Positions 1,182 through 46,390 of a DNA stretch of 64,000 nucleotides are shown here, in pieces (within the stretch, counting starts at the first letter, position 1; every line of letters begins with the position of its first letter). Source of the stretch: Limosilactobacillus gorillae (GTDB taxonomy: Bacteria > Pseudomonadota > Alphaproteobacteria > CAAGCB01 > CAG-977); the NCBI GenBank assembly GCA_963604715.1, contig CAVCSV010000005.1, positions 1,516 to 65,515 on the forward strand, read 5' to 3'. A model generated the notes under the pieces. The model was not told the DNA's origin and made no database searches. It saw only the letters and a list, made by a program, of their open reading frames with translations. The position numbers and the translations under genes are program-made.

Positions 1182-1868
1182 TTATCCCTCTTTTTTGGGT
1201 TCGCGCAGGACGTATCCGCGTCCCCAGACGGTTTCGATATAGTCGTCGCCGCCTGTCGCGTCTTTGATTTTTTTGCGCAGTTTGCAGATGAACACGTCGA
1301 TGATTTTCAGTTCGGGTTCGTCCATGCCGTTGTACAGATGATTCAGGAACTGCTCTTTGCTGAGCGTTGTTCCCTTGGACAGCGACAGACGTTCCAAAAT
1401 GCCGTATTCGCGCCCCGTCAGGTGCAAAGGCTTGCCGTTGACGAAAGCGGTGCGGGTGTCCAGATTGACCTCTATCGCGCCCGTGCGGATGACGGATTCC
1501 GAATGCCCTTTGGAACGGCGGACCAGCGCGCGGATGCGGGCGATAAGTTCGGCTTTGTCGAACGGTTTGGTCAGATAATCGTCCGCGCCCGTCGAAAAAC
1601 CTTTGACTTTTTTGTCCGCGCCCGACAGTCCCGACAAAATCAAAACGGGTGTGTTGATTTTCGCGGCGCGCAGGCGTTTCAAAACTTCGTACCCGTCGAT
1701 GTCGGGCAGCATCAAATCCAAAATGATGATGTCGTAGTCGTACAATTTTCCGATTTCCAGTCCGTCCTCGCCCAGAACGGTGGTGTCGACGACCATGCCT
1801 TCTTTGTGCAGGACGGCTTCGATTGTTTGAGAAATCGCCTGATCGTCCTCGACTAATAAAACGCGCAT
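1182..1868 (-). CDS. ctrA: cell-cycle response regulator CtrA (OmpR family)
   Basis: Near-identity over the whole length to CtrA as remembered ([81 protein letters not shown]). True start taken at ATG 1868 (MRVLLVEDD) rather than the longer ORF start at 1940. Confidence 0.92.
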
Positions 1869-1897
1869 AAGAATTCCCTTTTTCGGACAAAATGAAA

Positions 1898-1913
1898 TTA
1901 ACAGCTTATTAAC
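1898..1913. promoter_or_regulatory. consensus CtrA box TTAA-N7-TTAAC, 30 bp upstream of the ctrA start and about 100 bp upstream of fliI
   Basis: Sequence ttaacagcttattaac read directly; matches the established CtrA binding consensus. Confidence 0.55.
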
Positions 1914-2014
1914 TTTATGTTGTATGACTCCGATATGCAAGCCGAAAAAATCAAAAAGCGGGCTTTTTTTATGCGGGAAAACATTATATAAAGAAACAAA
2001 GGGATAAAAAGCCG

Positions 2015-3358
2015 ATGGACGAATGGCACAAAAGTTTGATTGACGACATAGACGCTTTGCCCGAATACCGTTCGCACGGGTCGGTTTCGGCGGTCAAAGG
2101 CATGCTGGTCGAAATGACGGGCGCGCGTTCCGAATTGTCCGTCGGCGACCGATGCACGATTTTGGCGCGCGCGGGCAAAAAAGTCCCCGCCGAAGTCGTC
2201 GGATTCAACGGCGGCAAAGTATTGCTGATGCCGTTTGCGAACCTTGACGGCGTGGGGCCGGGAAACGAAGTCGATTTAAGCAACGCGCATCCCGTTTTGT
2301 ATCCCGACGTTTCTTGGCTGGGGCGGGTGATTAACGCCATGGGCGAACCCGTCGACGGCAAAGGCCCGCTGAAAAAAGGCAAGATTCCGTGCTTGATTCA
2401 CGCGTCCCCTCCGCCCGCCAATTCGCGCGAACGCGTCGCGGGCAAAGCCGATTTGGGCGTGCGGGCGATTAACACTTTCCTGACGCTGTGCAAGGGGCAG
2501 CGTATGGGCATTTTCGCGGGGTCTGGCGTGGGCAAGTCGTCCTTGATGGCGATGATGGCGCGTCATACGCAGCTGGACGTTACCGTTTTGGGGCTTATCG
2601 GCGAACGCGGACGCGAAGCGCGCGAATTCATCGAGGACGACTTGGGCGTCGAGGGCATGAAGCGCAGCGTCGTCGTGGTGGCGACGTCGGACGAAAGCCC
2701 GCTGATGCGGCGGCAGGCGGCTTATGTCGCGATGACGGTTGCCGAGTATTTCCGCGATTTGAACAACAACGTTTTGTGCATGATGGACAGTATTACGCGC
2801 TTTGCGATGGCGCAAAGGGAAATCAGCCTGTCGGCGGGCGAACCGCCGGCGACCAAAGGCTACACGCCGACGGTGTTTGCGGAGCTTCCACGTTTGCTGG
2901 AACGCGCGGGTCCGGGGCGCATCGGGTCGGGGTCGATTACGGGCTTGTTTACCGTTTTGGTGGACGGCGACGACCACAACGAACCGATTGCCGACGCGGT
3001 GCGCGGCATTTTGGACGGGCATATCGTTTTGGAACGCGCGATTGCCGAACGCAACCGCTATCCCGCGGTCAACCTGCTGCGCAGTATTTCGCGTACCATG
3101 CCGGGATGCAACACGGACGAGGAAAACGCCCTTGTCAACCGCGCGCGCGCCTTGATTGCGACGTATGAAGATATGGCGGAGCTTATCCGTTTGGGCGCGT
3201 ACAAGCGCGGGTCGAACGCACAGGTCGACGAAGCGATTTTCTATTATGACAAGCTTGAAGCCTTTTTGTCGCAAAAGAAAAAGGAAAAAGTCGATTTCGC
3301 AACGGGTTATCAGCAGCTGAAAGACATCTTGTCGCAAAAGCCGTCCGGTGCTGAATAA
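2015..3358 (+). CDS. fliI: flagellar export ATPase FliI (type III secretion ATPase family)
   Basis: Walker A GSGVGKS, Walker [13 protein letters not shown]1/T3SS-ATPase architecture; followed by a fliJ-like gene. Confidence 0.9.
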
Positions 3359-3816
3359 TGGCGAAGAACGACCTGAAGACGCTGATACGCGTGCATCAAT
3401 TCGAACTGGACGAAAAACGCCGTCAGCTGGGCAATCTGCTGCGGTTCGAACAATCGCTTGAAAACCGCAAAATCCTGCTTGCCAAACGGTTCAAGGAGGA
3501 AGAGGAAGCCGCCAAAAGCGACCAAACGGCGGCGCTGACGTTCGGGGCGTATGTCGATTGGCACATCGACGAAACAAAGCGGGTCGAGCGCGCTTTGGTC
3601 GATGTTCGGCAGGAAATCGCATTGATGCGCGATGAAATACGGGAAGCGTATCAGGAACTGAAAACCTTTGAAATCACACAGGAAAACCGCGAAAAACGCG
3701 AAGCGGCGGAACTGGAGCGCAAAAACAACGCCGTGCTGGACGAAATCGGCTTGACGCTTTACAGACGCAGACAGGAAGAAGATTCCGCCGAAGAAAAGAA
3801 AAAAGACGATGAATAG
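3358..3816 (+). CDS. fliJ: flagellar export chaperone FliJ-like coiled-coil protein
   Basis: 152-aa charged coiled-coil; start overlaps the fliI stop (TAATG); fliI-fliJ order is conserved. Confidence 0.55.
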   Translation: MAKNDLKTLIRVHQFELDEKRRQLGNLLRFEQSLENRKILLAKRFKEEEEAAKSDQTAALTFGAYVDWHIDETKRVERALVDVRQEIALMRDEIREAYQELKTFEITQENREKREAAELERKNNAVLDEIGLTLYRRRQEEDSAEEKKKDDE

Positions 3817-4030
3817 GACGGCACGGGGAAACAAAAATCGTCATTGCGACGCCGACAGGCGGAAGCAATCCATTTGCAGGTGTTGAGCCGCGCTTGCGGA
3901 ATCAATGGATTGCCGTGTCGCTCCGCTCCTCGCAGAGACGAAGTGAGGCGGTGAGGGTGTCAATGCCTGCACGGGACTGTTGTTTTGCTTTTATGTTTAT
4001 TTCCAATAGAATAAGGCGGCAAAATAAAAA

Positions 4031-4052
4031 GCCCCCTGCGAGGGGGCTTTTT
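4031..4052. terminator. bidirectional Rho-independent terminator (GCCCCCT gcg AGGGGGC plus T-run) shared by fliJ and the convergent cysteine-rich gene
   Basis: Perfect 7-bp inverted repeat flanked by A-run and T-run. Confidence 0.65.
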
Positions 4053-4070
4053 GGGGTGTGCAGACAGCTA

Positions 4071-6666
4071 TCAGTCCTTAAAGACGCAATATCCGTTGAC
4101 ACATGTTTTTTCCGCGGAACAATCGTCGTTGGTTTTGCAAGATTCTGTCGTATCGATTGTTCCCCCTACAACGCATTCGTTTGCAGGCCATTTAGTTTGA
4201 CATGTGTATCCAGCACTACAAGAATTGGAAGTACATTCACAAATGCATCCATGATTAGTTGCTACGCCACGAGGAGTTGTTCCTGAGCAGGTAACTCCCG
4301 AACAACCGTTTACGCATTTTCCACCGGAACATTTTTCGTAACTGGCACAGTCACTATTGGAGGTGCACCCTTCTTTAACGCATTCGTTTGCAGGGACTTG
4401 AGTTCTGCATGTATATCCTGCACCGCAAGAATTGGAGGTACACTCGCAAATGCATCCATGCCCCGATGCTACACCATGAGGAGTGGTTCCGGAACAAGTA
4501 ACTCCCGAACAACCGTTTACGCATTCTCCTCCGGAGCATTTTTCGTAACTGGCACAGTCACTATTGGAGGAGCAACTGTTTTTCTCGCATTTGTTTATGG
4601 GTACATGCGTTACGCACCTATAGCCCGAAGCGCAAGAAGTACTGGTACATTCACATCCTATAAATTTATGACCGTAAGCACGACATTTTGGAGCTTCTCC
4701 GCTGCATGTCGTTGATGAACACAACGGAACACACGAGTGACTGACGCAACCGTCTGAATCTGATTTACAATCTTCACCGGTATAACACTTGCCCGCCTGC
4801 AGGTAGCATTTGCCGCCTTTGCAGTATTCGTAGCTTTCACAGCCGCATTGTTCTTCGCATTTATTGTTAATGCAGGCTTCGTTGCTTGCGCATTGGCTGT
4901 CCGACGTACAGCATCCGCTTTTTTCGACGCAGGAATGATTTTGAATCGAATAGCAGGTGGTGTTCGGGCATGTTACGGAAACGCAAGTGTATGTTGCCGT
5001 ATCGCATTGCTGTGATGAACCGCAATGACTGTCCGATGTGCAGGCGCGGCAGTAACCGTCCGACCAATACGGTTTGGACGACGGGCATCCGCAGGTGCCG
5101 TTCGAACAGACTTGTCCGCCCGAACACGAAACATCCGCGCAGGGATCCGCGCTTTTGCATCCGCCGTTGCCGTTGGCGATTTTTCCCGACGGACAGCCGC
5201 ACGATTCACCCGCGGAACAGGCAACGCATTCTTTGCAGGGACTTGAACCCGAATAGTTGCCCGTACTTTGTGCTTTCATCCCCGCGGAACACGACGGATA
5301 AGTCGACGTTCCCGTCGGACAGGCTTTGGCTTGGCAGTTGCCGCCCGAAATTTCGTAGCCTGTCGAACACGACGAACAAACATAGCATCCGCCCGTCATC
5401 GAACAGTTCGAGCAGTTGGACGTTCCCGATTTGCATGCGGAAGCCGTTGAAAATTCACAGCCGAATTCACAACTGCCGTTTCCGTCGGCAACCATGCCGC
5501 CCGAACAGGTGCAGGTTTCGCCTTTGGCGCAGGGCGTGCAGTATGCGTCGGATTTTCCCGCGTTTTCGCAATAGCTGCCGTTCGGGCAATCGCCGTAGGA
5601 CGAACAGGCGGGTTTGACGCATGTTCCGCTGCTGTTGACGACATAGCCGTCGGGGCAGGTGCATTGCGTGTCGACTTCGCACGCCGCGCAGTACGATTCC
5701 ACCGTGTCGGGGTTCACGCATTGCATGCCCGCGTCGCAACATTTGTCGGTGACGGAAGAACCGCAAACCGTGTCGGCGGAGCATGCAACGGCAACGCATT
5801 TGCCCGAACCGTCGGACAGTTGTCCGTCGGGACAGCGGCATTGTTCGTTTTTGCCGCAGGACACGCATTCCGCGCTTTCCGTCCCGCCGTTTTGGCAGAC
5901 GTTACCCGCGTCGCAGTCGTCATCCGCGACGCATTCATACGACGCGCATCCGTTCGCTGTCGGGAAAGTTCCCGTCGGGCACGGATTGTCGCAGTTGTCG
6001 TTGGATGTGCACGCCACGCATTCGCAAGTGTTCGTGCTGTCGAAAGAGTATCCTTCGCCGCAGGATTTCTTTTCTTTGCAGTAACAGCCGCCCGCGCCGT
6101 CGGGGTAAGTCTTTCCGGGACAGTTGCATTTGCCGAGCGGTTCATAGTCTTTCGCGCATTTTTTGCATGAACAGTCGCTGTTCAGGTATTGCCCCGCGGA
6201 ACAGCTTAAATTCGCGGGACAGACGCACGTTCCGTCGGAACCGAGGACTTTTTCGCCGTCGCAGTTGCATTTCGACCCCGTCGCGCACGTTTCGCATTTG
6301 CCGTTTTCGCATTTTTTTGCCGTGCCGCATGAATTTTCCGTGCATTGGCAGGTATGCGAATGGTTGGCGGCTTCGCAGTCGGGTGTTTCGCCCGAACACG
6401 TCGTCGACGTGCAAACGTCTTCGCATTTGTTGGCGACGCATTTTTGCGTTGCCAAGCAGTCATTGTTTGATGTGCAGACATTCAGTTCGGGACGCGTCCC
6501 GATAGCGGCTACGGTGCCTTTGGAGCTTTCGCCATAGCCCAATTTCACACTTTTTGCGATTCGGAAAGAGGCGGAATCATCTAAAAGTAGGGGGGGGGGG
6601 TAAGGATTTAACAACCGATACGTTCAAAGTGAACGCCGTTGCCAACAGGAAAAGCGTTTTTTTCAT
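4071..6666 (-). CDS. secreted cysteine-rich repeat protein; signal peptide at ATG 6666 is uncoupled from the 847-aa body (4071..6614) by the G11 tract, so the gene is frameshifted (OFF) as sequenced
   Basis: ATG 6666 with AAGGAA Shine-Dalgarno encodes MKKTLFLLATAFTLNVSVVKSL, then the poly-C tract (minus strand). With 11 C the reading frame stops after PPPPTFR. With 10 or 13 C it joins the long ORF (LLLDDSASFRIAKS...). The body is very Cys-rich and ends in three 70-aa tandem modules. Confidence 0.7.
6590..6600. repeat. homopolymeric G11 (C11 on the coding strand) tract inside the 5' coding region of the cysteine-rich gene; candidate slipped-strand phase-variation switch
   Basis: Counted directly: ctaaaagta + 11 g + taagg. 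Confidence 0.8.
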
Positions 6667-6749
6667 AGCATAATTCCTTCAAGATTTTCAAACGCTCCAA
6701 GTATAACACAAAATTCGGGCGGAATTCAGCAAAAAAATGTGTTTTCCCG

Positions 6750-7640
6750 TCAGGCGGCTTGCTTTTTCTTTTTTTTCAGCACAATCAGCAAAACGGATGT
6801 CAGAATCAGCGCGATGCCCGCCGCAATGCGCACGGTCATGGATTCGCCGAACACGAACACGCCGATAAGGACGGCGGTCACGGGTTCCAGCGCACCCAAA
6901 ATCGCGGACAGCGTCGGTCCGATAAGCTTGATGGCGATGGTCATGGTTTCCAGCGAAACGATGGTCGGGAAAAACGCCAAGCAAATGACGCACCCCGCCG
7001 TAAAGGGCGACGTTATCGGCCGCAAATCCAATCCGAACCGCAGGTTGAACAAAAACACGAACAGCCCGAAAAACATCACATAAAACGTCAGCGTCGGGAA
7101 ATGCATTCTTTTCGCCGTTTTCAGCTGTTTCAGGGCAATCATGTAAACGGCGTAGCTCAGCGCCGACAGCAAAGTCAAAACAACGCCGTACAAACTGAGC
7201 GTTTTGCCGTCGTCCGTTTTGTAAAACAGCAGGATACCCGCGCTCATCAGCACAATCGATACGATGGTGCGCAAATCAATGCGTTCGTGGAAAAACACCG
7301 CCATCAAAACGGCGACCATAATCGGATAAACGAACAAAATCGTCGAAGCGATGCCCGCGCCGATAAGCGAATAGCTCATAAACAGGGTCAGAGACGACAT
7401 CGCGAACACGATGCCCAGACAAAACATGACCAGCGCGTCTTTCAGGGAAATTTTCAGCGACACTTTTTTATGAAAGTGCACCCACAGCCCGTACAGGACG
7501 ACCGCCGTCAGATAGCGGTAAAACAAAACGGAATTGACATCCATCCCCGCGGCGTACAACGGCAGGGCGAACAGCGGGTTCGTGCCGTAGGAACAGGTCC
7601 CCAGCATTCCCAAAAACACGCCTTTGTTTTTTCTGGTCAT
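6750..7640 (-). CDS. EamA/DMT-family (RarD-like) 10-TM transporter
   Basis: Ten hydrophobic helices in a duplicated EamA-like pattern; start moved to MTRKNK. Confidence 0.7.
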   Translation of the reverse strand: MTRKNKGVFLGMLGTCSYGTNPLFALPLYAAGMDVNSVLFYRYLTAVVLYGLWVHFHKKVSLKISLKDALVMFCLGIVFAMSSLTLFMSYSLIGAGIASTILFVYPIMVAVLMAVFFHERIDLRTIVSIVLMSAGILLFYKTDDGKTLSLYGVVLTLLSALSYAVYMIALKQLKTAKRMHFPTLTFYVMFFGLFVFLFNLRFGLDLRPITSPFTAGCVICLAFFPTIVSLETMTIAIKLIGPTLSAILGALEPVTAVLIGVFVFGESMTVRIAAGIALILTSVLLIVLKKKKKQAA

Positions 7641-8758: not shown

Positions 8759-11700
8759 TCAGGCTTCTTTGTTGAAAACACGCGACAACGTCATATACAG
8801 ACGCCCCGCCTCCGATCCCAGCAGAACGGCGGTCAGCACGTCGGCGCGTTCGTTTTCCTGCGCGCGGGACAGAACGCCTTCGAACGTGCCCATATATTGA
8901 GTGATATAGCCGCGGAATTCGGCGTCCGAAGCGAATTGTTCGCTGATTTTGCGCATTTGGTTTTTGTCGATTGCGCGGGACAGATAGCGGACAAAAGCGC
9001 TTTTATCGCCCGAATAGTAGCGTTTCCACAGGTCTTCTTCGACGTTCGGGGCGAACAGGCGCGTCATGTCAACGCCCAAAGACTGCAAACGTTCGATGAT
9101 GACGGCGGCGTCTTTCATAAAGCGGTCGGTGTCGGCTTCTTCCTTACGTTTGTTCAGGGCGGCGATGTATTCCTCCGCCGAACGGGACGCGGAAATCAGC
9201 GATTGAACCTGACGGTTGAACGCGCCGCCCAGCTTCAGCGACTGCGCCGAAATTTTTTCGCCCGATTCCTGAATTTCTTTGGCGTTGTCGCGCAAAACCG
9301 TCAGCAGGTTCTGCAAGCGGGCAAGCGCTTCGTCCGAAGCGGTCGACAGCACGTCCGACTGGTCGATGAACTGTTCGCCCGATTTGCGGACTTCGGCGGC
9401 GATGCGTTCGGAATTGCCCGCGACTTCGCTGATCATGGCGCGCAGACGCTGTCCCGCCAAATCGATTTGAACGACGCCTTTGTTGGACATTTCTTCGAAT
9501 TCTTTGCCGATTTGGTGGACGGTATCGCTCAAGCGGCGGACGCGGGCGTCGGCGTCCTGCGCCGTTTTGTCAAAGTCCGAAGCGCGTTCGCGCAAAACGA
9601 CGCCGCAGTTTTTGACGGCTTTCTGCGATTCTTCGGACAGACGCGAAATCTGGTGCGCTTGAACAAGGAACGTATCGCCCGATTTTTCCAGTTCGCCGCG
9701 CGCGATGACGGATGCCGCCTGCAGCCGTTGGGTTTTGGTTTCGAATTCGTCGCCCGCCGCTTTCAATCCGTCCAAAACCTGCTGAGCAAGCTGCGACAGC
9801 AAATCGGTTTTTTCCTGCAGCATTTGAGCGGTGGCGGCGGAACGCTTGACGGTTTCGTCGGCGGCTTTTTGCGCTTCGTCGTTGCGCTGGCGCAGGTTTT
9901 CGCCCGTGGCTTCCAATTCAAAGCCGATTCGCGACGACGCGGTCAGCAAATCGGTCGTGTTTTGGCGCACGGCTTCGTTGATGTCGCGCAAATGCCGCAT
10001 GACGTCCTGCGCCGCCGCGTTCAAAGCGTCCGTTTGATTGCTCAAAGAGGCTTCGCCCAAGCGGGACTGGGTCGCAATCATATTGGCGACGTCGCCCAAA
10101 TCGACGATGTGCCGCTGCATGGAATCGCGAACCATCATGGCTTGCTGCGTCGATTTCGCGGATTGCTGCTGCAAGCTGTCCGTTTGGGCGGCGATTTCAG
10201 CTTTCAAAGCCTCCATACGTTGTGTCAAAGCGTCGGCGGCTGTCGAAAAATCGGTTTGTCCGCGGCTGATTTGCGCCAAAGAATCGCCGTTTTGCACGCC
10301 GAAATCCTTTATCAAAGCGGTAAAAGCCGTGATTTTTTCGGCAAAGTCCGCCGCCGAATCGGACAGGTGCTTTTGCGCCTGTTCCGTTAGTTCCGCCAGA
10401 TTTTCCGATTGCTTCGTCAGCGATTCGCCGACGGTTTCCAAGTGTGCGACCGTCAAATCGGACGCGTTGGCCAGTTCTTTGGTTTGGACGTTCAATCCTT
10501 CCTCTATCAAGCGGATGCGCGACACCAGACGTTCCAAATCGTTGTCCGCCTGTTCGGATTGTTCACGCAGCAAAGCGGCGACTTTGCCCGTCTGTTCGGA
10601 CAGTTTGTCGGAAGCGTCTGACAGGGTTTGGCTCTGTTTGGCAAACAAAGTATCGATTTTTTGCGTTTTTTCGGACAGGTCGTCCGCCGTGCTCGCCGCC
10701 GTTTCCAACAGCTTGCGCGCGTCGCCGTCCAGCTTGCGGAATTGTTCGTCCAGCTGGGAAACGGCTTTTTCCGCGCGGTTTTTCAACAAATCCGCGGACA
10801 CGTCCATTTGCGTCGTTCTGCGCGTGATTTCGGCGGAAACTTCCTCGGTATAGCCCGCGACGCGCCGCGCAGAAGCGTCCAGCATGTCTTTGTGCGCGCT
10901 CAGCGTTTCGGACAAATCCGCATTGACGGCGGCGGTTTGTTTCGACGCGGAGTCGAACGCTTGAATTCTGTTGCCCAGCGTGATTTCCAGTTCGGCGAAC
11001 TTGTCCGCCGCCGCGCCCGATTTCACCAGCATATCGCGCATGTTTTCGGTCAAAGCCGCAACCGTTTCCGCACAGCGTTTTTCAAGCAGTTCGGCGATTT
11101 GCGTCAAGTCTTCGGACTGTTGTTTCAGGCTGTTTTTGGTTTCTTCGACGCGCGCGGCGGCGGCGGAGATGTATTTTTGCTGCTGGGTCAGCGACGTTTC
11201 GCTGACCAAAGCCTGCGACACCAGCGCGCTGCTTAAATCGGACAGCTCCGCGGAATGTTTCAGCAGGCGCGCGCAGACGGAATCGGCGCGTTCGTCGGTT
11301 TGGGCGACGGTCTTGTCCAAAACGGAAATGCCGGATTCAAAGCCTTCTTTCATCTTATCCAGACGTTCGTTGGCGGAATCCAAAGCCGAAGTCAGCCGCG
11401 CCGTTTGCACGTCCAGCGTTTCGGAAACGGTCTGCGTGTCGTTTTTCATGGTTTTCAAAGCGACGCTCAGCAGCTGCGTTTTCATATCGACGTCTTCGCC
11501 GACGGCGGTCAAACCGGCGCGCGCCGCGTCCGCCTGCGCCGTCAAACGTTCGGATTTGTCCGACAAAGCATCGGAAACGGCGGAAATTTTCGCAACGGCG
11601 GCATCGGTCGCCGCGCCGATTTCGGCAATGTAAGTGTCCAGCGTCGTTTCGACGGTTTTGAACCGCGCGACGGTTTTTTCGGCTTCGTTGTCCAAAGCGG

Positions 11701-12901
11701 CGTTTTGTTCGCCGAATTTGGCGGTCAGCTGAGCCGTCAGTTTGACCAAAGCTTCGTCTTTGGCGGTCAGAACGTCACTTTGGACGGTCAGGGCGTGTTC
11801 GATGTCCGCGACGCGGCTTTCCATCAAATCCGCCGATTTTTCCATATCGGTCAGCACGGTTTGCGCCGTTTTTTGCAACGCCGCCGTTTGGTCGTCCAAA
11901 ACGACGCCCGCGGCGGTCATGTCGTCGCGCGTTTTGTCGCCCGCTTCGCGCAACAGGGACAGATGCGCTTGGATGTCCTGTTTCAAATCGACCGCCTGTT
12001 GCGCCAGTTTTGCGTGAACGTCGGCGGCGACGGCGGTCAAATCGGCGGCGTGTTTGCCGATTTCCAAAGCGGCGATGCCCGTTTGTTCGCTCAGCACGTC
12101 GCGCGCTTTTTCAGACGCGGCGCGCAGGACGGCGCTTTGTTCCCGCACGTCCGCAGTCAATCGGGACAGATTGTCGGACAAGGCATCGCCCGTTTGCCGC
12201 AAAGCCGCCTTTTCCGCGTTCAATTTTTCCCCCGCGGCGGTGACGGCGGCGTCGGTTTCGGCGGCGGCCGTTTGCAAAGCCGCCGCGTTTTCGCGCAACA
12301 GGGTCAAACTGTTGTCGGTTTGCAGTCGGGCGGAGGAGCACAGCCGTTCAAGCTCTTGGGCTTTTGCCGTTATGCATTCGGAACCGTCCGCCAGAATTTC
12401 GGCAAGCGTTTTCGACGCTTTTTCAATGTCCGCGGCATGCGCCGAAAACGTCGTTTCAGCCGAATCGGAACATTCTTTCAGTTTGGCGTAGACCGCGTTC
12501 AGGCTGTCGGTTTGCGTTTTCAGATTGTCCAGAACGCCCGACACGTACAGCTTGTTTTTCGCGCCGGGGTGCGTCAGTTCGGCGATGTAGCGGCGCAAAA
12601 CGTCGGCTTCGCGGACAAAGCGGCGCTCCGATGCGAAATAAGCCGCCGCAATCCAGATGAACGCGACGGGGCTCAACAGTCCCGCCAAGCAACTGAAGTA
12701 TTCGGGCGGGGTCATTTCGTAGCGCGCGCTCCACCACCCCGAAACGCCCAAAAAAGACCACGCCAGAACGCCCCACAGCAGGGTCAGCGCGCCCGCCGCG
12801 ATGACGGCGATGCGGTCTTTTGCCGATTTGGGGGGCAAAGTTTCCTGCGACAGCAACAGCGTTTCGTTTGTTTCGTTTTCCGAAGCCATGGTCTTTTCCA
12901 T
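8759..12901 (-). CDS. 1380-aa membrane-anchored coiled-coil protein (two N-terminal TM helices, about 1100-aa Ala/Glu/Gln-rich rod, conserved 150-aa C-terminal domain)
   Basis: Long ORF; N-terminal TM helices (IAVIAAGALTLLWGVLAWSFLGV, FSCLAGLLSPVAFIWIAAAYF); low-complexity coiled-coil; product unknown. Confidence 0.6.
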   Translation of the reverse strand: MEKTMASENETNETLLLSQETLPPKSAKDRIAVIAAGALTLLWGVLAWSFLGVSGWWSARYEMTPPEYFSCLAGLLSPVAFIWIAAAYFASERRFVREADVLRRYIAELTHPGAKNKLYVSGVLDNLKTQTDSLNAVYAKLKECSDSAETTFSAHAADIEKASKTLAEILADGSECITAKAQELERLCSSARLQTDNSLTLLRENAAALQTAAAETDAAVTAAGEKLNAEKAALRQTGDALSDNLSRLTADVREQSAVLRAASEKARDVLSEQTGIAALEIGKHAADLTAVAADVHAKLAQQAVDLKQDIQAHLSLLREAGDKTRDDMTAAGVVLDDQTAALQKTAQTVLTDMEKSADLMESRVADIEHALTVQSDVLTAKDEALVKLTAQLTAKFGEQNAALDNEAEKTVARFKTVETTLDTYIAEIGAATDAAVAKISAVSDALSDKSERLTAQADAARAGLTAVGEDVDMKTQLLSVALKTMKNDTQTVSETLDVQTARLTSALDSANERLDKMKEGFESGISVLDKTVAQTDERADSVCARLLKHSAELSDLSSALVSQALVSETSLTQQQKYISAAAARVEETKNSLKQQSEDLTQIAELLEKRCAETVAALTENMRDMLVKSGAAADKFAELEITLGNRIQAFDSASKQTAAVNADLSETLSAHKDMLDASARRVAGYTEEVSAEITRRTTQMDVSADLLKNRAEKAVSQLDEQFRKLDGDARKLLETAASTADDLSEKTQKIDTLFAKQSQTLSDASDKLSEQTGKVAALLREQSEQADNDLERLVSRIRLIEEGLNVQTKELANASDLTVAHLETVGESLTKQSENLAELTEQAQKHLSDSAADFAEKITAFTALIKDFGVQNGDSLAQISRGQTDFSTAADALTQRMEALKAEIAAQTDSLQQQSAKSTQQAMMVRDSMQRHIVDLGDVANMIATQSRLGEASLSNQTDALNAAAQDVMRHLRDINEAVRQNTTDLLTASSRIGFELEATGENLRQRNDEAQKAADETVKRSAATAQMLQEKTDLLSQLAQQVLDGLKAAGDEFETKTQRLQAASVIARGELEKSGDTFLVQAHQISRLSEESQKAVKNCGVVLRERASDFDKTAQDADARVRRLSDTVHQIGKEFEEMSNKGVVQIDLAGQRLRAMISEVAGNSERIAAEVRKSGEQFIDQSDVLSTASDEALARLQNLLTVLRDNAKEIQESGEKISAQSLKLGGAFNRQVQSLISASRSAEEYIAALNKRKEEADTDRFMKDAAVIIERLQSLGVDMTRLFAPNVEEDLWKRYYSGDKSAFVRYLSRAIDKNQMRKISEQFASDAEFRGYITQYMGTFEGVLSRAQENERADVLTAVLLGSEAGRLYMTLSRVFNKEA

Positions 12902-16188: not shown

Positions 16189-16222
16189 AGCCCCCTTGCC
16201 GCTGCGGCAGGGGGGCTTTTTG
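16189..16222 (+). terminator. Rho-independent terminator after ileS (GCCCCCTTGCCGC / GCGGCAGGGGGGC plus T-run)
   Basis: Long inverted repeat followed by TTTTT. Confidence 0.6.
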
Positions 16223-16297
16223 TATGAAAAATCAATAAAAAATAAACCAATTTTTGGCAAAATAGCGGCGATGTCATTTGTCGCAAGGGGATGGAAT

Positions 16298-18727
16298 ATG
16301 AAATTGACCCGTACCGCTTTGAAAGTTTTGACCGCCCGTTACCGCGCCGTGTTAATCCGTTGTCTGGCAGGCGTGCTGACCGTATCCGCCGCCCAAGCCC
16401 AGAGCTTGACCGACGGAACGCTGACCGAAAACAAGACGTTTGACGGCGGCAGCGGGACTTCCGTCAGTTCGGGATTGAACATTGACGGCGACAGTCAGTA
16501 TACGCTGACGTTGGACGGGACATGGACGTTCAAGGGCAGCAACGATTATGTTTTTTCGAATTTGAAAGAATTGAACGCGGCGCGTGTCGATATAGACGCG
16601 AATTTCAAAATTTCGAATTCGGAAGTGAATTTTACACAGCAGACGCAAATCAAAGCGGGCGCGACGCTGACTTTGGAATCCGTTACGGGCAGTTTTTACG
16701 ATATTTCCGCGGCGGGGACGCTGATTGTGGACGATGCCAGCAATATTACCCTGACAAACGCGCTGATGGTCGGCACAATCAAAAACGGCGGAACGATTAC
16801 GCTGGATACGTCCAACATCGCTTTTGATTTCAATACGGTGATTGATTCATACGACGACGACACAAACGGAACGCTGGTTGTAACAGGGGAAAAAGGGGCG
16901 ATATTTTCCAGCACGCTGACAAACAAACTGACGGTCACCACGGATTCGAAAGCGACGTTCAATACGACGTCAAACCTGCAAAGCGACACCCTTGCCATCA
17001 GCGGACAGCTGATTTTTACGGAAGAATCCTCGTCCTTTAACGCAAACAATTACAGCTGGAGCGGTACGGGCGTGGTTAAAATGGCAAACGGAATGACGTT
17101 TCAGGGGGATTTCGGTTCGGTCAGCGTTTCTTTAAACGGGGATGCCGCCGCAACGGGCGATATTGCAACGGGAAACGTATTCTTTTTGGGCGCAAACACG
17201 CTGGATTTGGGAAAACGGACTCTGACCGCGGATGAAATCATCGGTTATGATAATTCATCACAACCAAGCGTTGAAGCCTCAGGAGGGGTGGCAAGGAGCG
17301 GTGTCTCTACGGGGATTATCAAAATCACTTTGCCCGCGACGGGAAACACGTCGTCGATTTTGAATGCGGATGTATCAACGGTCACGATTGCGCTGGATTT
17401 GTCGGCTTTGCAAAAGAAAAAGGTGGAAAAATACATTCTTGTCGAAAAAGACAAAGAGTTGACCGATGTCTTTCTGGAGTACGACAGCAAAAAGTATGTG
17501 ATTTCGTATACCGGGTTTGAACGCAAGGACGCCAAAAATATCACCAGTCTGACCGAATTGACGACCGAGGGCGGCGGTACGGTTTACATCGGATTGAAAA
17601 TGGGGTCGGGCGAACAGGCGGTTGATGATTTGATTGACGGCGGCATTCCTGTTACGCCGGCGGATGAAATCGCGGGCGACATTATTGACGAACTGGACAA
17701 CGACGACATCAATGACGCGCTGGACAACGCGGATTTGAAAGACAAGAAAAACATCCTGCGCGAAGTCGGATTGGATACCGCCAACACGCATATTGCCGTT
17801 TCGGCGGCGCGCACGGTTTTGGACACGGTATCCGCCCGCTTGACGAACATTGCGGAAACGCCGCGCTACAGCCCGTACTATGAAAACATTCGGCATAACA
17901 AAACAAGAATGTACAAAGGACGCAACGGCGGCGACTATGTCGCGGGCAGGGCGAGCCTGTGGGTGCGCGGGCTGGTGAACAAAACGAACTTTGACGGCGA
18001 ACATGCTTTTGACGCGGATTCGACGGGTTTCGCCGCGGGGCTGGAGGGTTCCCCGTCAAACGATTGGAAAGTGGGCATCGGTTACGCCTACACGTCGACG
18101 GATGTCGATGCCGACAGGTCGAAAACGGATGCGAAAACAAACGCCGCTTTCCTGTACGCGCGCTACAAACCGGAAAGCTTTTACATCAACACCGTCGGAA
18201 CGTTCGGGCATACCGATTTCAAAGATACGACGAAAATTCTGAAGCTGAAATCCGACTATTCGACGGATACGGTTGCGGTGCAGGCTGTCACAGGCTATGA
18301 TTTCGGAACGTTTTCGCCCGAAATCGGCGCACGCTACACCGCCGTTCATCAGGACGATTACAAAACGGGACTGAATTTGAACGTCAAATCCAAAACAATG
18401 GAATACGCAACCGCAATCGCGGGATTCCGCGCGGGAATGACGCGATACCTGCGTTTGAACAGAAAAGTGGCAATCCGTTCCGAACTTAAAGCGCTGGCGA
18501 CTTACGACTGGTTGCGCGACGATGAAACGCGGCTGGTTGCAATGCCTGACAATTCGGCGACGTATGTGATGAAAGGCGAAGCTTTCGCCCGTTTCGGCGG
18601 CGAAGTCGGCGCGGACGTGTTCCTGACGTTCGGCGGCGCGGGCGAAATCGTGCTGACGTATGACGGCAAATTCAAAGAGGATTATCAGGACCATACGGGC
18701 ATGGTCAGTCTGAAAATCAATTTCTGA
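16298..18727 (+). CDS. classical (type Va) autotransporter with extended signal peptide, repetitive passenger and C-terminal beta-barrel translocator ending in F
   Basis: Signal peptide MKLTRTALKVLTARYRAVLIRCLAGVLTVSAAQAQ; Thr/Asn/Gly-rich passenger; about 280-aa C-terminal domain with alternating beta-strand pattern and terminal KINF. Start moved from 16196 (inside the ileS terminator) to ATG 16298, which has a Shine-Dalgarno. Confidence 0.75.
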   Translation: MKLTRTALKVLTARYRAVLIRCLAGVLTVSAAQAQSLTDGTLTENKTFDGGSGTSVSSGLNIDGDSQYTLTLDGTWTFKGSNDYVFSNLKELNAARVDIDANFKISNSEVNFTQQTQIKAGATLTLESVTGSFYDISAAGTLIVDDASNITLTNALMVGTIKNGGTITLDTSNIAFDFNTVIDSYDDDTNGTLVVTGEKGAIFSSTLTNKLTVTTDSKATFNTTSNLQSDTLAISGQLIFTEESSSFNANNYSWSGTGVVKMANGMTFQGDFGSVSVSLNGDAAATGDIATGNVFFLGANTLDLGKRTLTADEIIGYDNSSQPSVEASGGVARSGVSTGIIKITLPATGNTSSILNADVSTVTIALDLSALQKKKVEKYILVEKDKELTDVFLEYDSKKYVISYTGFERKDAKNITSLTELTTEGGGTVYIGLKMGSGEQAVDDLIDGGIPVTPADEIAGDIIDELDNDDINDALDNADLKDKKNILREVGLDTANTHIAVSAARTVLDTVSARLTNIAETPRYSPYYENIRHNKTRMYKGRNGGDYVAGRASLWVRGLVNKTNFDGEHAFDADSTGFAAGLEGSPSNDWKVGIGYAYTSTDVDADRSKTDAKTNAAFLYARYKPESFYINTVGTFGHTDFKDTTKILKLKSDYSTDTVAVQAVTGYDFGTFSPEIGARYTAVHQDDYKTGLNLNVKSKTMEYATAIAGFRAGMTRYLRLNRKVAIRSELKALATYDWLRDDETRLVAMPDNSATYVMKGEAFARFGGEVGADVFLTFGGAGEIVLTYDGKFKEDYQDHTGMVSLKINF

Positions 18728-45103: not shown

Positions 45104-45304
45104 GGCAACCTCCGCATGATTGAAAAAAAACATTATACTACGGATTGTAACCGAAAGCCAAGCCTTGAGGCGTTTTTTTAAAAAACTGACTCTTTATGCG
45201 GGAAAGGCTTTGATTTTTTTTTCAAAGTGTGGCAAATATAAACGTGCTTGAGAATTCAATCGCGTCTGATTTGACGCAAGCTTAACAATTTAAGGAGAAA
45301 ATAC

Positions 45305-46315: not shown

Positions 46316-46390
46316 GGTTTTTTACCGCAAAACGGCTTCCTCCCTCAAAGGAGGGAGCCGATTTTGTTTATCTGCAAGGAAAATAAAAAA

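Follow-up and report, generated by a model that had tools for sequence, protein, structure and literature searches.

A gene on the minus strand of contig CAVCSV010000005.1, within the 64,000-nucleotide stretch analysed here (hereafter the window), raises the question of why a Sec-type signal peptide and the long cysteine-rich protein body downstream of it should be encoded in different reading frames, with an uninterrupted run of 11 cytosines lying between them. A preliminary description of this DNA attributed the arrangement to ON/OFF switching of the gene by slipped-strand mispairing and took the gene to be OFF at present. The tract lengths and frame states of related loci, together with the purifying selection on OFF bodies, support this proposal, and we consider the locus to be, with a probability of roughly 0.8, a translational phase-variation switch (contingency locus) operated by slipped-strand mispairing. 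The mechanism is classical, and what is new is the protein family that it serves, the portable 5′ cassette in which it resides and the host clade.

A poly-C tract separates the signal peptide from the protein body

Direct reading of positions 3900..6900, repeated by script, places the start codon ATG at 6666..6664, preceded by a Shine-Dalgarno sequence whose counterparts (GGAGG/AAGGA) are kept at an equal distance from the ATG in an upstream alignment of paralogues (Table 1). The signal peptide that follows consists of an n-region with two lysines, an 11-residue hydrophobic core and a c-region ending in VVKS (MKK / TLFLLATAFTL / NVSVVKS), with Val at −3 and Ser at −1 of the predicted cleavage site, as expected of a Sec substrate processed by signal peptidase I; the site itself was placed by the −3/−1 rule only. 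This segment is the most hydrophobic 12-mer of the whole protein, and it is conserved as MKKS..FLATAFLLNASVAKS in ≈30 homologues, where it is joined in frame to the body. The window signal peptide has no lipobox cysteine, and no second hydrophobic segment occurs anywhere in the fused protein, so no alternative start carries a signal peptide.

The C11 tract lies inside the 5′ coding region, where it codes for a run of prolines at mature positions +2 to +5. At this length the frame of the signal peptide continues as PPPPTFR-stop and ends 7 codons past the last residue of the signal peptide, and the long open reading frame (ORF), listed from a TTG as 847 aa (4071..6614), lies in the +1 frame relative to the signal peptide. 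Removal of one C in silico (C10) yields a continuous 864-aa fusion reading ..KSLPPPLLLDDSASFRIAKSVKLGYG.. / ..VVKSLPPPLLLDDSASFRIAKSVKLGYG.., with a signal peptide/body junction that spans ..KSLPPPLLLDDSASFR.., and the addition of two (C13) restores the fusion as well; C10 and C13 are the in-frame lengths for this locus. Both reading and script therefore bear out the preliminary description in its account of ATG 6666, with an AAGGAA and a Sec signal peptide leading into C11 and an early stop, in the fusion that it foresaw for C10 or C13, and in its statement that no other start carries a signal peptide. Its 847-aa cysteine-rich protein holds as regards the cysteines, of which the fusion contains 136 (15.7%), but not as regards the first 8 residues, which result from reading the signal-peptide region out of frame and are not real protein. 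A reading in which ATG 6666 opens a regulatory leader and TTG 6614 is the true start was rejected on the grounds that in relatives one reading frame runs through both signal peptide and body.

The tract is the sole G or C run of at least 7 in the window, the next longest being 6, and simple models predict 0.015 to 0.05 runs of 11 or more in a sequence of this size. We took G/C homopolymers of about 8 or more as hypermutable, a range in which C11 falls. The window's other homopolymers of at least 7 are either intergenic or contained in ORFs that they leave uninterrupted. General homopolymer error in the window was considered and rejected: two A7 flags, at 46385 and 52128, are ordinary gene boundaries, and a T9 run (45214..45222) is intergenic.

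Tract length and frame state differ among related loci

Gene calls with odd starts (MKLGYG, MGYGDSS, MDLCTSTTC, MQNLTPPPLLDDS and MYVADRIFGGNIPPPPMTFDDS) recur among the homologues, and the DNA of each contains an intact signal-peptide ORF that is lost from frame at the poly-C tract. In a census of family loci, 12 of the 18 that bear a tract are OFF and 6 are ON, compared with 12 of 12 in frame and none OFF where the run is absent or interrupted (for example TCTTCCTCATCACCGCCG and TCCCCCTCCCCCA). This relation between tract and frame state gives a Fisher p of 3e-4, and the two unbiased collection scans alone give p = 0.005. The OFF loci have C11 (the window, L001, L002, L005, L025, L026, L031, L034 and L035), C10 (L003 and L004) or C15 (L030), and the ON loci have C10 (L009), C11 (L033 and L036), C12 (L029), G9 (L032) or a G12 inside the signal peptide (L007; ..LLGGGGIP..). 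The unbiased scans contributed L004, L005, L007, L009, L025 and L026; L001 is syntenic with the window at ≈95% identity. L001 and L032 come from ERZ26858475, L003 from SRR2249209, L034 from SRR2246329 and L035 from SRR2191446. Lengths of C10, C11, C12 or C15 across relatives, with G9 or G12 in a sub-branch, give a positive outcome to the comparison that the preliminary description had proposed as a check.

Differences in length are also found at one and the same locus. The ON locus L009 (C10) is 99.84% identical to the OFF locus L026 (C11) over 3,063 nt, with 4 mismatches and 1 gap, and 99.47% identical over 5.5 kb to L025, which is likewise C11 and OFF. Similarly, L036 (C11, ON) and L030 (C15, OFF) are 98.2% identical over 5.3 kb, with identical bases flanking the tract, and L029 (C12, ON) and L031 (C11, OFF) are 94% identical and have a common neighbourhood that includes an extracytoplasmic function (ECF) sigma factor. 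In the sub-branch, L032 (G9) and L007 (G12) are 87% identical and differ by one codon, both being ON. The family thus shows one mark of a contingency locus: length differs at the same locus, the frame toggles and the rest of the ORF is intact.

Several points weigh against this interpretation. C11, an OFF length, is common to the window and its orthologue L001 (95% identity), as C10 is to L003 and L004, so that randomisation of the tract does not extend to every pair of strains. The comparative data are all consensus sequences of short-read metagenome assemblies, the OFF contig L026 having only about 2.4x coverage, and the census is enriched for OFF loci because truncated gene calls were fetched on purpose. 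As for a surface location of the product, no lipobox, C-terminal anchor, β-barrel or conserved neighbouring secretion gene was found.

That the window and L001 both have C11, although they have diverged by 5%, could also be expected of a stable tract that is recoded, either by RNA-polymerase slippage or by +1 slippage of tRNA-Pro on CCC-C, giving constitutive low-level expression through a programmed or tolerated shift. Both +1 slippage of tRNA-Pro on CCC-C and stuttering of polymerase at homopolymers are established, and a +1 shift on a stretch of CCC codons is exactly what the window requires. To judge by its title, a 1989 paper dealt with ribosomal frameshifting as well as slipped-strand mispairing in the gonococcal P.II (opa) genes in E. 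coli. However, the OFF loci require an offset of 1 (the window, L001, L003, L004, L025, L026, L030 and L034) or of 2 (L002, L005, L031 and L035), and many relatives need no shift at all, which makes a programmed frameshift, a device that keeps to one direction and usually comes with a stimulatory element, unlikely. Tract length, moreover, differs in the DNA of near-identical loci, and an Rfam search of the window found no stimulatory element. We regard recoding as an improbable explanation of the locus, and slippage of RNA polymerase or ribosome on CCC-C may add some leakiness to the OFF state of a phase-variable gene.

The reliance on consensus assemblies, with L026 as the thinnest case, also bears on whether the tract is truly in frame everywhere and C10, C11 and C15 are length errors of sequencing or assembly, given that library PCR and base calling are prone to errors at long G/C homopolymers. 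Such an artefact would have to have corrupted 12 of the 18 loci with a tract, which come from different projects and were built by different assemblers (SPAdes NODE_, MEGAHIT k127/k141 and scaffolded METAG contigs), among them contigs at 12–14x coverage from the sample of L001, and would require an error of +4 bases in L030. A consensus reports the majority length, and PCR stutter should therefore not flip it; in addition, independent assemblies agree (L025 with L026, and the window with L001), and the other window homopolymers of at least 7 break no genes. On this evidence an artefact is very unlikely.

OFF alleles are under purifying selection

The bodies of OFF loci are intact, remaining open for 723–832 codons in the locus census. 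The window and L001, which are both C11, can be aligned without gaps over the first 340 codons of the body, with 0.155 synonymous (dS) and 0.024 nonsynonymous (dN) substitutions per site and a dN/dS of 0.16; the ratio is 0.19–0.55 in seven other pairs. These values show purifying selection on OFF alleles and speak against pseudogenes. That the window and its closest relative are both out of frame would also be expected of a plain pseudogene, that is, a decaying gene with a single inactivating frameshift beside which the homopolymer is incidental. Yet the window body is intact over 839 codons, the two OFF alleles differ by zero indels over the 340 codons compared, and the promoter element, ribosome-binding site (RBS) and terminator are kept. 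Frameshifts in the family occur at the tract only, with none elsewhere in the genes, and in-frame alleles of the same loci exist. We consequently give almost no credence to simple gene decay.

Long G/C runs are likewise confined to the 5′ cassette of this family. In 260 kb of DNA around the family loci, 19 of the 20 runs of at least 8 are found at the junction of family members, and the twentieth, a C12 in L001 (1951..1962), lies in a remnant family 5′ cassette (MKTTFPSATAAFALNVSAVQSY, C12, LLLGDFASFQIAKDVK..). This remnant (1886..2060), which comprises a signal peptide, C12, LLLGDFASFQIAKDVK and a stop, is part of an insertion between the EamA gene and the cysteine-rich gene of L001 and is followed at 2060..2809 by a gene for a 249-aa hexapeptide-repeat (acetyltransferase-like) protein that the window lacks. 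The presence of a remnant suggests that duplication or recombination affects the 5′ cassette as a whole.

Two loci with different 5′ regions were also observed. L034 and L035 encode the same 768-aa body (P0030; gene at 1501..3807 in both) and have the same downstream genes (Fur, SH3 and dUTPase), and their signal peptides differ, as do the genes upstream: L034 has an NMO-family gene, L035 the RpoH-EamA arrangement also seen in the window. Either paralogues have recombined at the 5′ cassette or the assembly is chimeric across the repeat.

In the sub-branch formed by L007 (≈3955..3966; LLGGGGIP) and L032 (≈1540..1550; LLGGGI), the tract is a poly-G placed within the hydrophobic core of the signal peptide. 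Judged from these sequences, a switch has been placed here independently within the family. Since L032 comes from the same sample as L001, the closest relative of the window, the genome of the window probably has a poly-G copy too.

A narrow family in gut Alphaproteobacteria

A search of 5.8 billion clustered proteins returned ≈45 clear homologues, all unannotated, and when the conserved N-terminal 330 residues were used for an exhaustive HMMER search, only 51 representatives at E ≤1e-3 emerged among 1.84 billion. On the basis of this small number we consider the family, as delimited by sequence, to be real but narrow. Its hosts are uncultured "Alphaproteobacteria bacterium" metagenome-assembled genomes (MAGs) from the human gut (HGM16787, HGM16788 and UBA2903), with one NCBI record under the name "Acetobacter sp.", and a single MAG holds at least 6 paralogues at unrelated sites; tblastn found no second paralogue within the 64-kb window. 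The MAG titles, along with the CtrA, FliI and RpoH neighbours of the window gene, support the earlier assignment of this DNA to an alphaproteobacterium. Literature on the family, on RF32-type gut alphaproteobacteria and on phase variation by simple sequence repeats (SSRs) in gut commensals yielded nothing specific. The suggestion that the system is undescribed accordingly stands for the family, for which no describing paper was found, but not for the mechanism, which is textbook.

Every member, the most distant included, has the same layout of signal peptide, motif, short spacer and cysteine-rich modules, and in most of the ≈45 homologues the signal peptide, PPP(P) and body are in one frame. 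The motif, x-L-[DN]-[DE]-S-x-S-F-x-[IV]-A-[KR]-[SA]-[VI]-K-L-G (also written LLDDSASFRIAKSVKLG), stands at the mature N terminus and is the hallmark of the family; F9, A12, V15, K16, L17 and G18 are invariant in the alignment and are kept in the most distant members. Because it has a low predicted local distance difference test score (pLDDT) in AlphaFold2, the motif is probably unstructured on its own, and a role for this LLDDSASFRIAKSVKLGYG tag in export or anchoring is a guess on our part.

The C-terminal thirds vary, with a small number of end types that recur. Among P0001–P0045, these are ..CVFKD, ..CRCMVYDTTSKFIN, ..CCEACVGRL, ..KQYYCSNYR, ..ITQCVYN, ..GKWVPGACY and ..GTAPIW, and the same ends occur with different middle modules, which suggests shuffling of C-terminal cassettes among family members. 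One distant member, P0129, has a Thr/Asn-rich, β-helix-like region in place of the C-terminal cysteine modules. A conserved N terminus with a variable C-terminal tip also brings polymorphic toxins and their immunity genes to mind, an interpretation that we rejected since the downstream genes are unrelated housekeeping genes that are different at every locus.

Many database entries for the family are mis-called because of the frameshift at the tract. Some start at an internal GTG or ATG (MDLCTSTTC, MCSPNPC and MGVGTK), others begin upstream in the wrong frame (P0094, MVLWIQFFWRTRYEK..., and P0085, MQNFSPPPP...), and single protein clusters at 90% identity mix full-length members (AKSYPPPLLLDDS..) with many that are truncated at the N terminus.

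The body is predicted to consist of small disulfide modules

The cysteines of the fused protein begin at mature residue 42 and are mostly spaced 4–5 residues apart, with only 12 CXXC motifs, and the protein ends in ..CVNGYCVFKD. AlphaFold2 models residues 40–560 with a pLDDT of 70–90, and the body is predicted to form strings of small disulfide-bonded β-hairpin modules. Structural matches are weak and generic, comprising NELL2 EGF1-6, LRP2, the factor X EGF domain, cysteine-rich domains of the TNFR family and R-spondin Fu repeats. The EGF-like character assigned to the protein earlier is thus appropriate only in the generic sense of small disulfide modules. Pfam and NCBIfam gave no significant match for the window protein, a Pfam scan at E up to 1 produced only a sub-threshold match to Dumpy DPY, and no sequence in the PDB matched a family profile.

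Near the C terminus, Tandem Repeats Finder and inspection of the protein revealed modules with a 207-nt (69-aa) period, in about two copies at 81–85% DNA identity, along with a clearly more diverged third copy upstream; the three near-identical 70-aa modules of the preliminary description are replaced by this arrangement. The repeat region is rearranged in the window relative to L001.

A conserved upstream element and the genomic neighbourhood

An alignment of the 90 nt before the ATG from 16 loci at unrelated genomic sites revealed a conserved element (Table 1), which in the window holds the extended −10 sequence TGTGTTATACT. In most paralogues it reads AATTTTGCCACAATTGTGTGTTACAGT and includes the perfect palindrome CACAATTGTG, and the element AATTTTGCCACAATTGTGTGTTAcAgT and a good RBS are common to OFF and ON copies. 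A strict sigma-70 scan found no −35/−10 pair upstream of the window gene, and it is for this reason that the role of the element, probably the promoter of the gene, is argued from conservation.

Further features of this region were observed. AATTTTGCCACAATTGTGTGTTAcAgT stands at about −75 to −45 before the ATG in L003, L004, L029, L031, L012, L032, L007, L010 and L030, where the perfect 10-bp palindrome adjoins an extended −10-like TGTGTTAnnnT, and the window copy, CCGAATTTTGTGTTATACT, is the most degenerate. The palindromic element may be a common operator or promoter that gives the family a second, transcriptional layer of control. Directly upstream of one paralogue are the ECF sigma factor and two small genes of 86 aa and 154–161 aa (L029 51..1312; L031 1..1191), and this paralogue has a second TTGCCACAATTGCCA copy ≈28 nt before the shared upstream element. 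The small genes are possibly an anti-sigma pair, and the sigma factor may be a dedicated regulator of the cysteine-rich family.

The neighbours of the gene in the window encode a CtrA-like regulator, FliI, FliJ, EamA, RpoH, IleRS and an autotransporter. Two large genes within 12 kb of the cysteine-rich gene lack a long homopolymer: a minus-strand gene (8759..12901) whose 1,380-aa product is rich in Ala, Glu and Gln, has membrane segments at its N terminus and is probably a coiled coil, and a plus-strand gene (16196..18727) for an 843-aa autotransporter-like protein.

Table 1 Features of the proposed phase-variable locus in the window
Feature	Position	Strand	Basis or remark
Conserved upstream element AATTCCGCCCGAATTTTGTGTTATACT, probable promoter	6700..6726	−	Alignment of −90..ATG, 16 loci at unrelated genomic sites
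Shine-Dalgarno sequence AAGGAA	6674..6679	−	7–8 nt 5′ of ATG; read directly
Sec-type signal peptide MKKTLFLLATAFTLNVSVVKSL	6601..6666	−	Direct reading, script, conservation across family
Present (OFF) product, 29-aa peptide MKKTLFLLATAFTLNVSVVKSLPPPPTFR, then stop	6577..6666	−	ORF table, script
C11 homopolymer (plus-strand G11), putative switch	6590..6600	−	Direct reading, script
Cys-rich body, +1 frame, 839 aa plus stop	4071..6590	−	ORF table, script, alignment
Family hallmark motif LLLDDSASFRIAKSVKLGYG at mature N terminus	6531..6590	−	Family alignment
C-terminal tandem modules, 207-nt (69-aa) period	4170..4638	−	Tandem Repeats Finder, protein view
Intrinsic terminator hairpin CCCCTCGCAGGGGG, then CTTTTTATTT	4032..4045	−	26 nt past stop codon

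A model for the proposed switch

In the mechanism that we propose, transcription would start from the promoter element common to the whole family, and the length of the tract alone would decide whether the Sec signal peptide is joined to the ≈840-aa cysteine-rich body. Slipped-strand mispairing during replication would add or remove C residues in a poly-C that lies just past the predicted signal-peptidase site and encodes a dispensable linker of three to five prolines, a position at which the number of prolines at the mature N terminus would be free to vary. At C10 or C13 the gene would be ON and yield a secreted, disulfide-bonded protein. At C11 it would be OFF, with the 29-aa peptide made and the body left with neither signal peptide nor RBS. 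Several paralogues per genome would each have their own tract, so that a population could display different combinations of proteins. We infer that slippage is frequent and reversible within a population, and we expect the protein to be exported beyond the periplasm or exposed at the surface, where the selective agent would be an external one such as host immunoglobulin A (IgA), phage or predators; surface location and function are deduced solely from the signal peptide, the disulfide-rich modules of extracellular type and the presence of a contingency switch.

Comparison with known systems

The arrangement recalls several established phase-variable systems. Closest in mechanism are the Opa proteins of Neisseria, a multigene family with CTCTT repeats in the region encoding the leader peptide, and their copies are switched independently by frame and not by transcription (PMC3960869). 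The cysteine-rich family is also multigene and exported, each paralogue with its own tract. It differs in that a homopolymer of C (or G) where signal peptide and mature protein meet takes the place of a CTCTT pentamer, in that the product is an ≈840-aa cysteine-rich modular protein without a Pfam match instead of a small, eight-stranded outer-membrane β-barrel, and in that the host is a gut alphaproteobacterium and not a betaproteobacterial pathogen; a Pfam scan at E up to 1 gave no match of the window protein to the Opacity profile. In PilC of Neisseria, which Jonsson et al. reportedly described in 1991, a poly-G tract in the region encoding the signal peptide is said to switch a large exported protein in and out of frame. 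The L007/L032 sub-branch, with G12 or G9 within the hydrophobic core, resembles this arrangement, although the proteins are unrelated, PilC being a pilus-tip adhesin, and the window tract lies after the signal peptide and not within it. In Campylobacter jejuni, intragenic G/C homopolymers of ≈9–11 mutate by indels at many loci to produce ON/OFF phasotypes (PMC8355987). Campylobacter is likewise a gut bacterium and provides the nearest counterpart from that habitat, and the tract lengths of the present family, mostly C10–C12, are in the same range. Its tracts, however, occur mainly in genes for glycosylation, capsule and flagellar modification and are scattered along the ORFs, whereas those described here are confined to one protein family and one defined position.

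[quoted passage not shown] The likeness to the present family is by analogy only and lies in the 15.7% Cys, the several paralogues, the variable C termini and the human gut habitat. The window protein has no VSP match in the Pfam scan at E up to 1, lacks a C-terminal transmembrane helix or CRGKA tail, has only 12 CXXC motifs, and is controlled by an SSR frameshift as opposed to the post-transcriptional or epigenetic control of VSPs. With EGF-like, TNFR-type and furin-like modules, it has in common the predicted chain of small disulfide-stapled β-hairpins.

Significance

Nearly all work on slipped-strand phase variation has dealt with pathogens such as Neisseria, Haemophilus, Campylobacter and Helicobacter. 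Here the device would govern a whole family of unannotated, eukaryote-like cysteine-rich exported proteins in uncultured gut commensals. For annotation, the consequence is that gene callers systematically mis-annotate the family and that statistics and signal-peptide predictions derived from such entries are wrong. The ON/OFF phasotypes could be read from metagenomic reads and correlated with host state, IgA coating or phage load, and the conserved N-terminal motif and high disulfide content make the family a candidate for a new export or anchor tag and for a protease-resistant surface architecture in a Gram-negative commensal.

A more far-reaching interpretation, which we consider conceivable but doubtful, is that gut Alphaproteobacteria have a bacterial counterpart of the Giardia VSP strategy. 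The family would then form a protease-resistant, disulfide-knotted coat or set of adhesins, displayed combinatorially by poly-C/poly-G switches on each paralogue, all of them housed in a common 5′ cassette that is portable and comprises promoter element, signal peptide, tract and LLDDSxSFxIAKSVKLG tag, with C-terminal modules shuffled between copies and the N-terminal tag acting as a new signal for export or anchoring. If this is true, a commensal would possess both phase variation and antigenic variation in one family.

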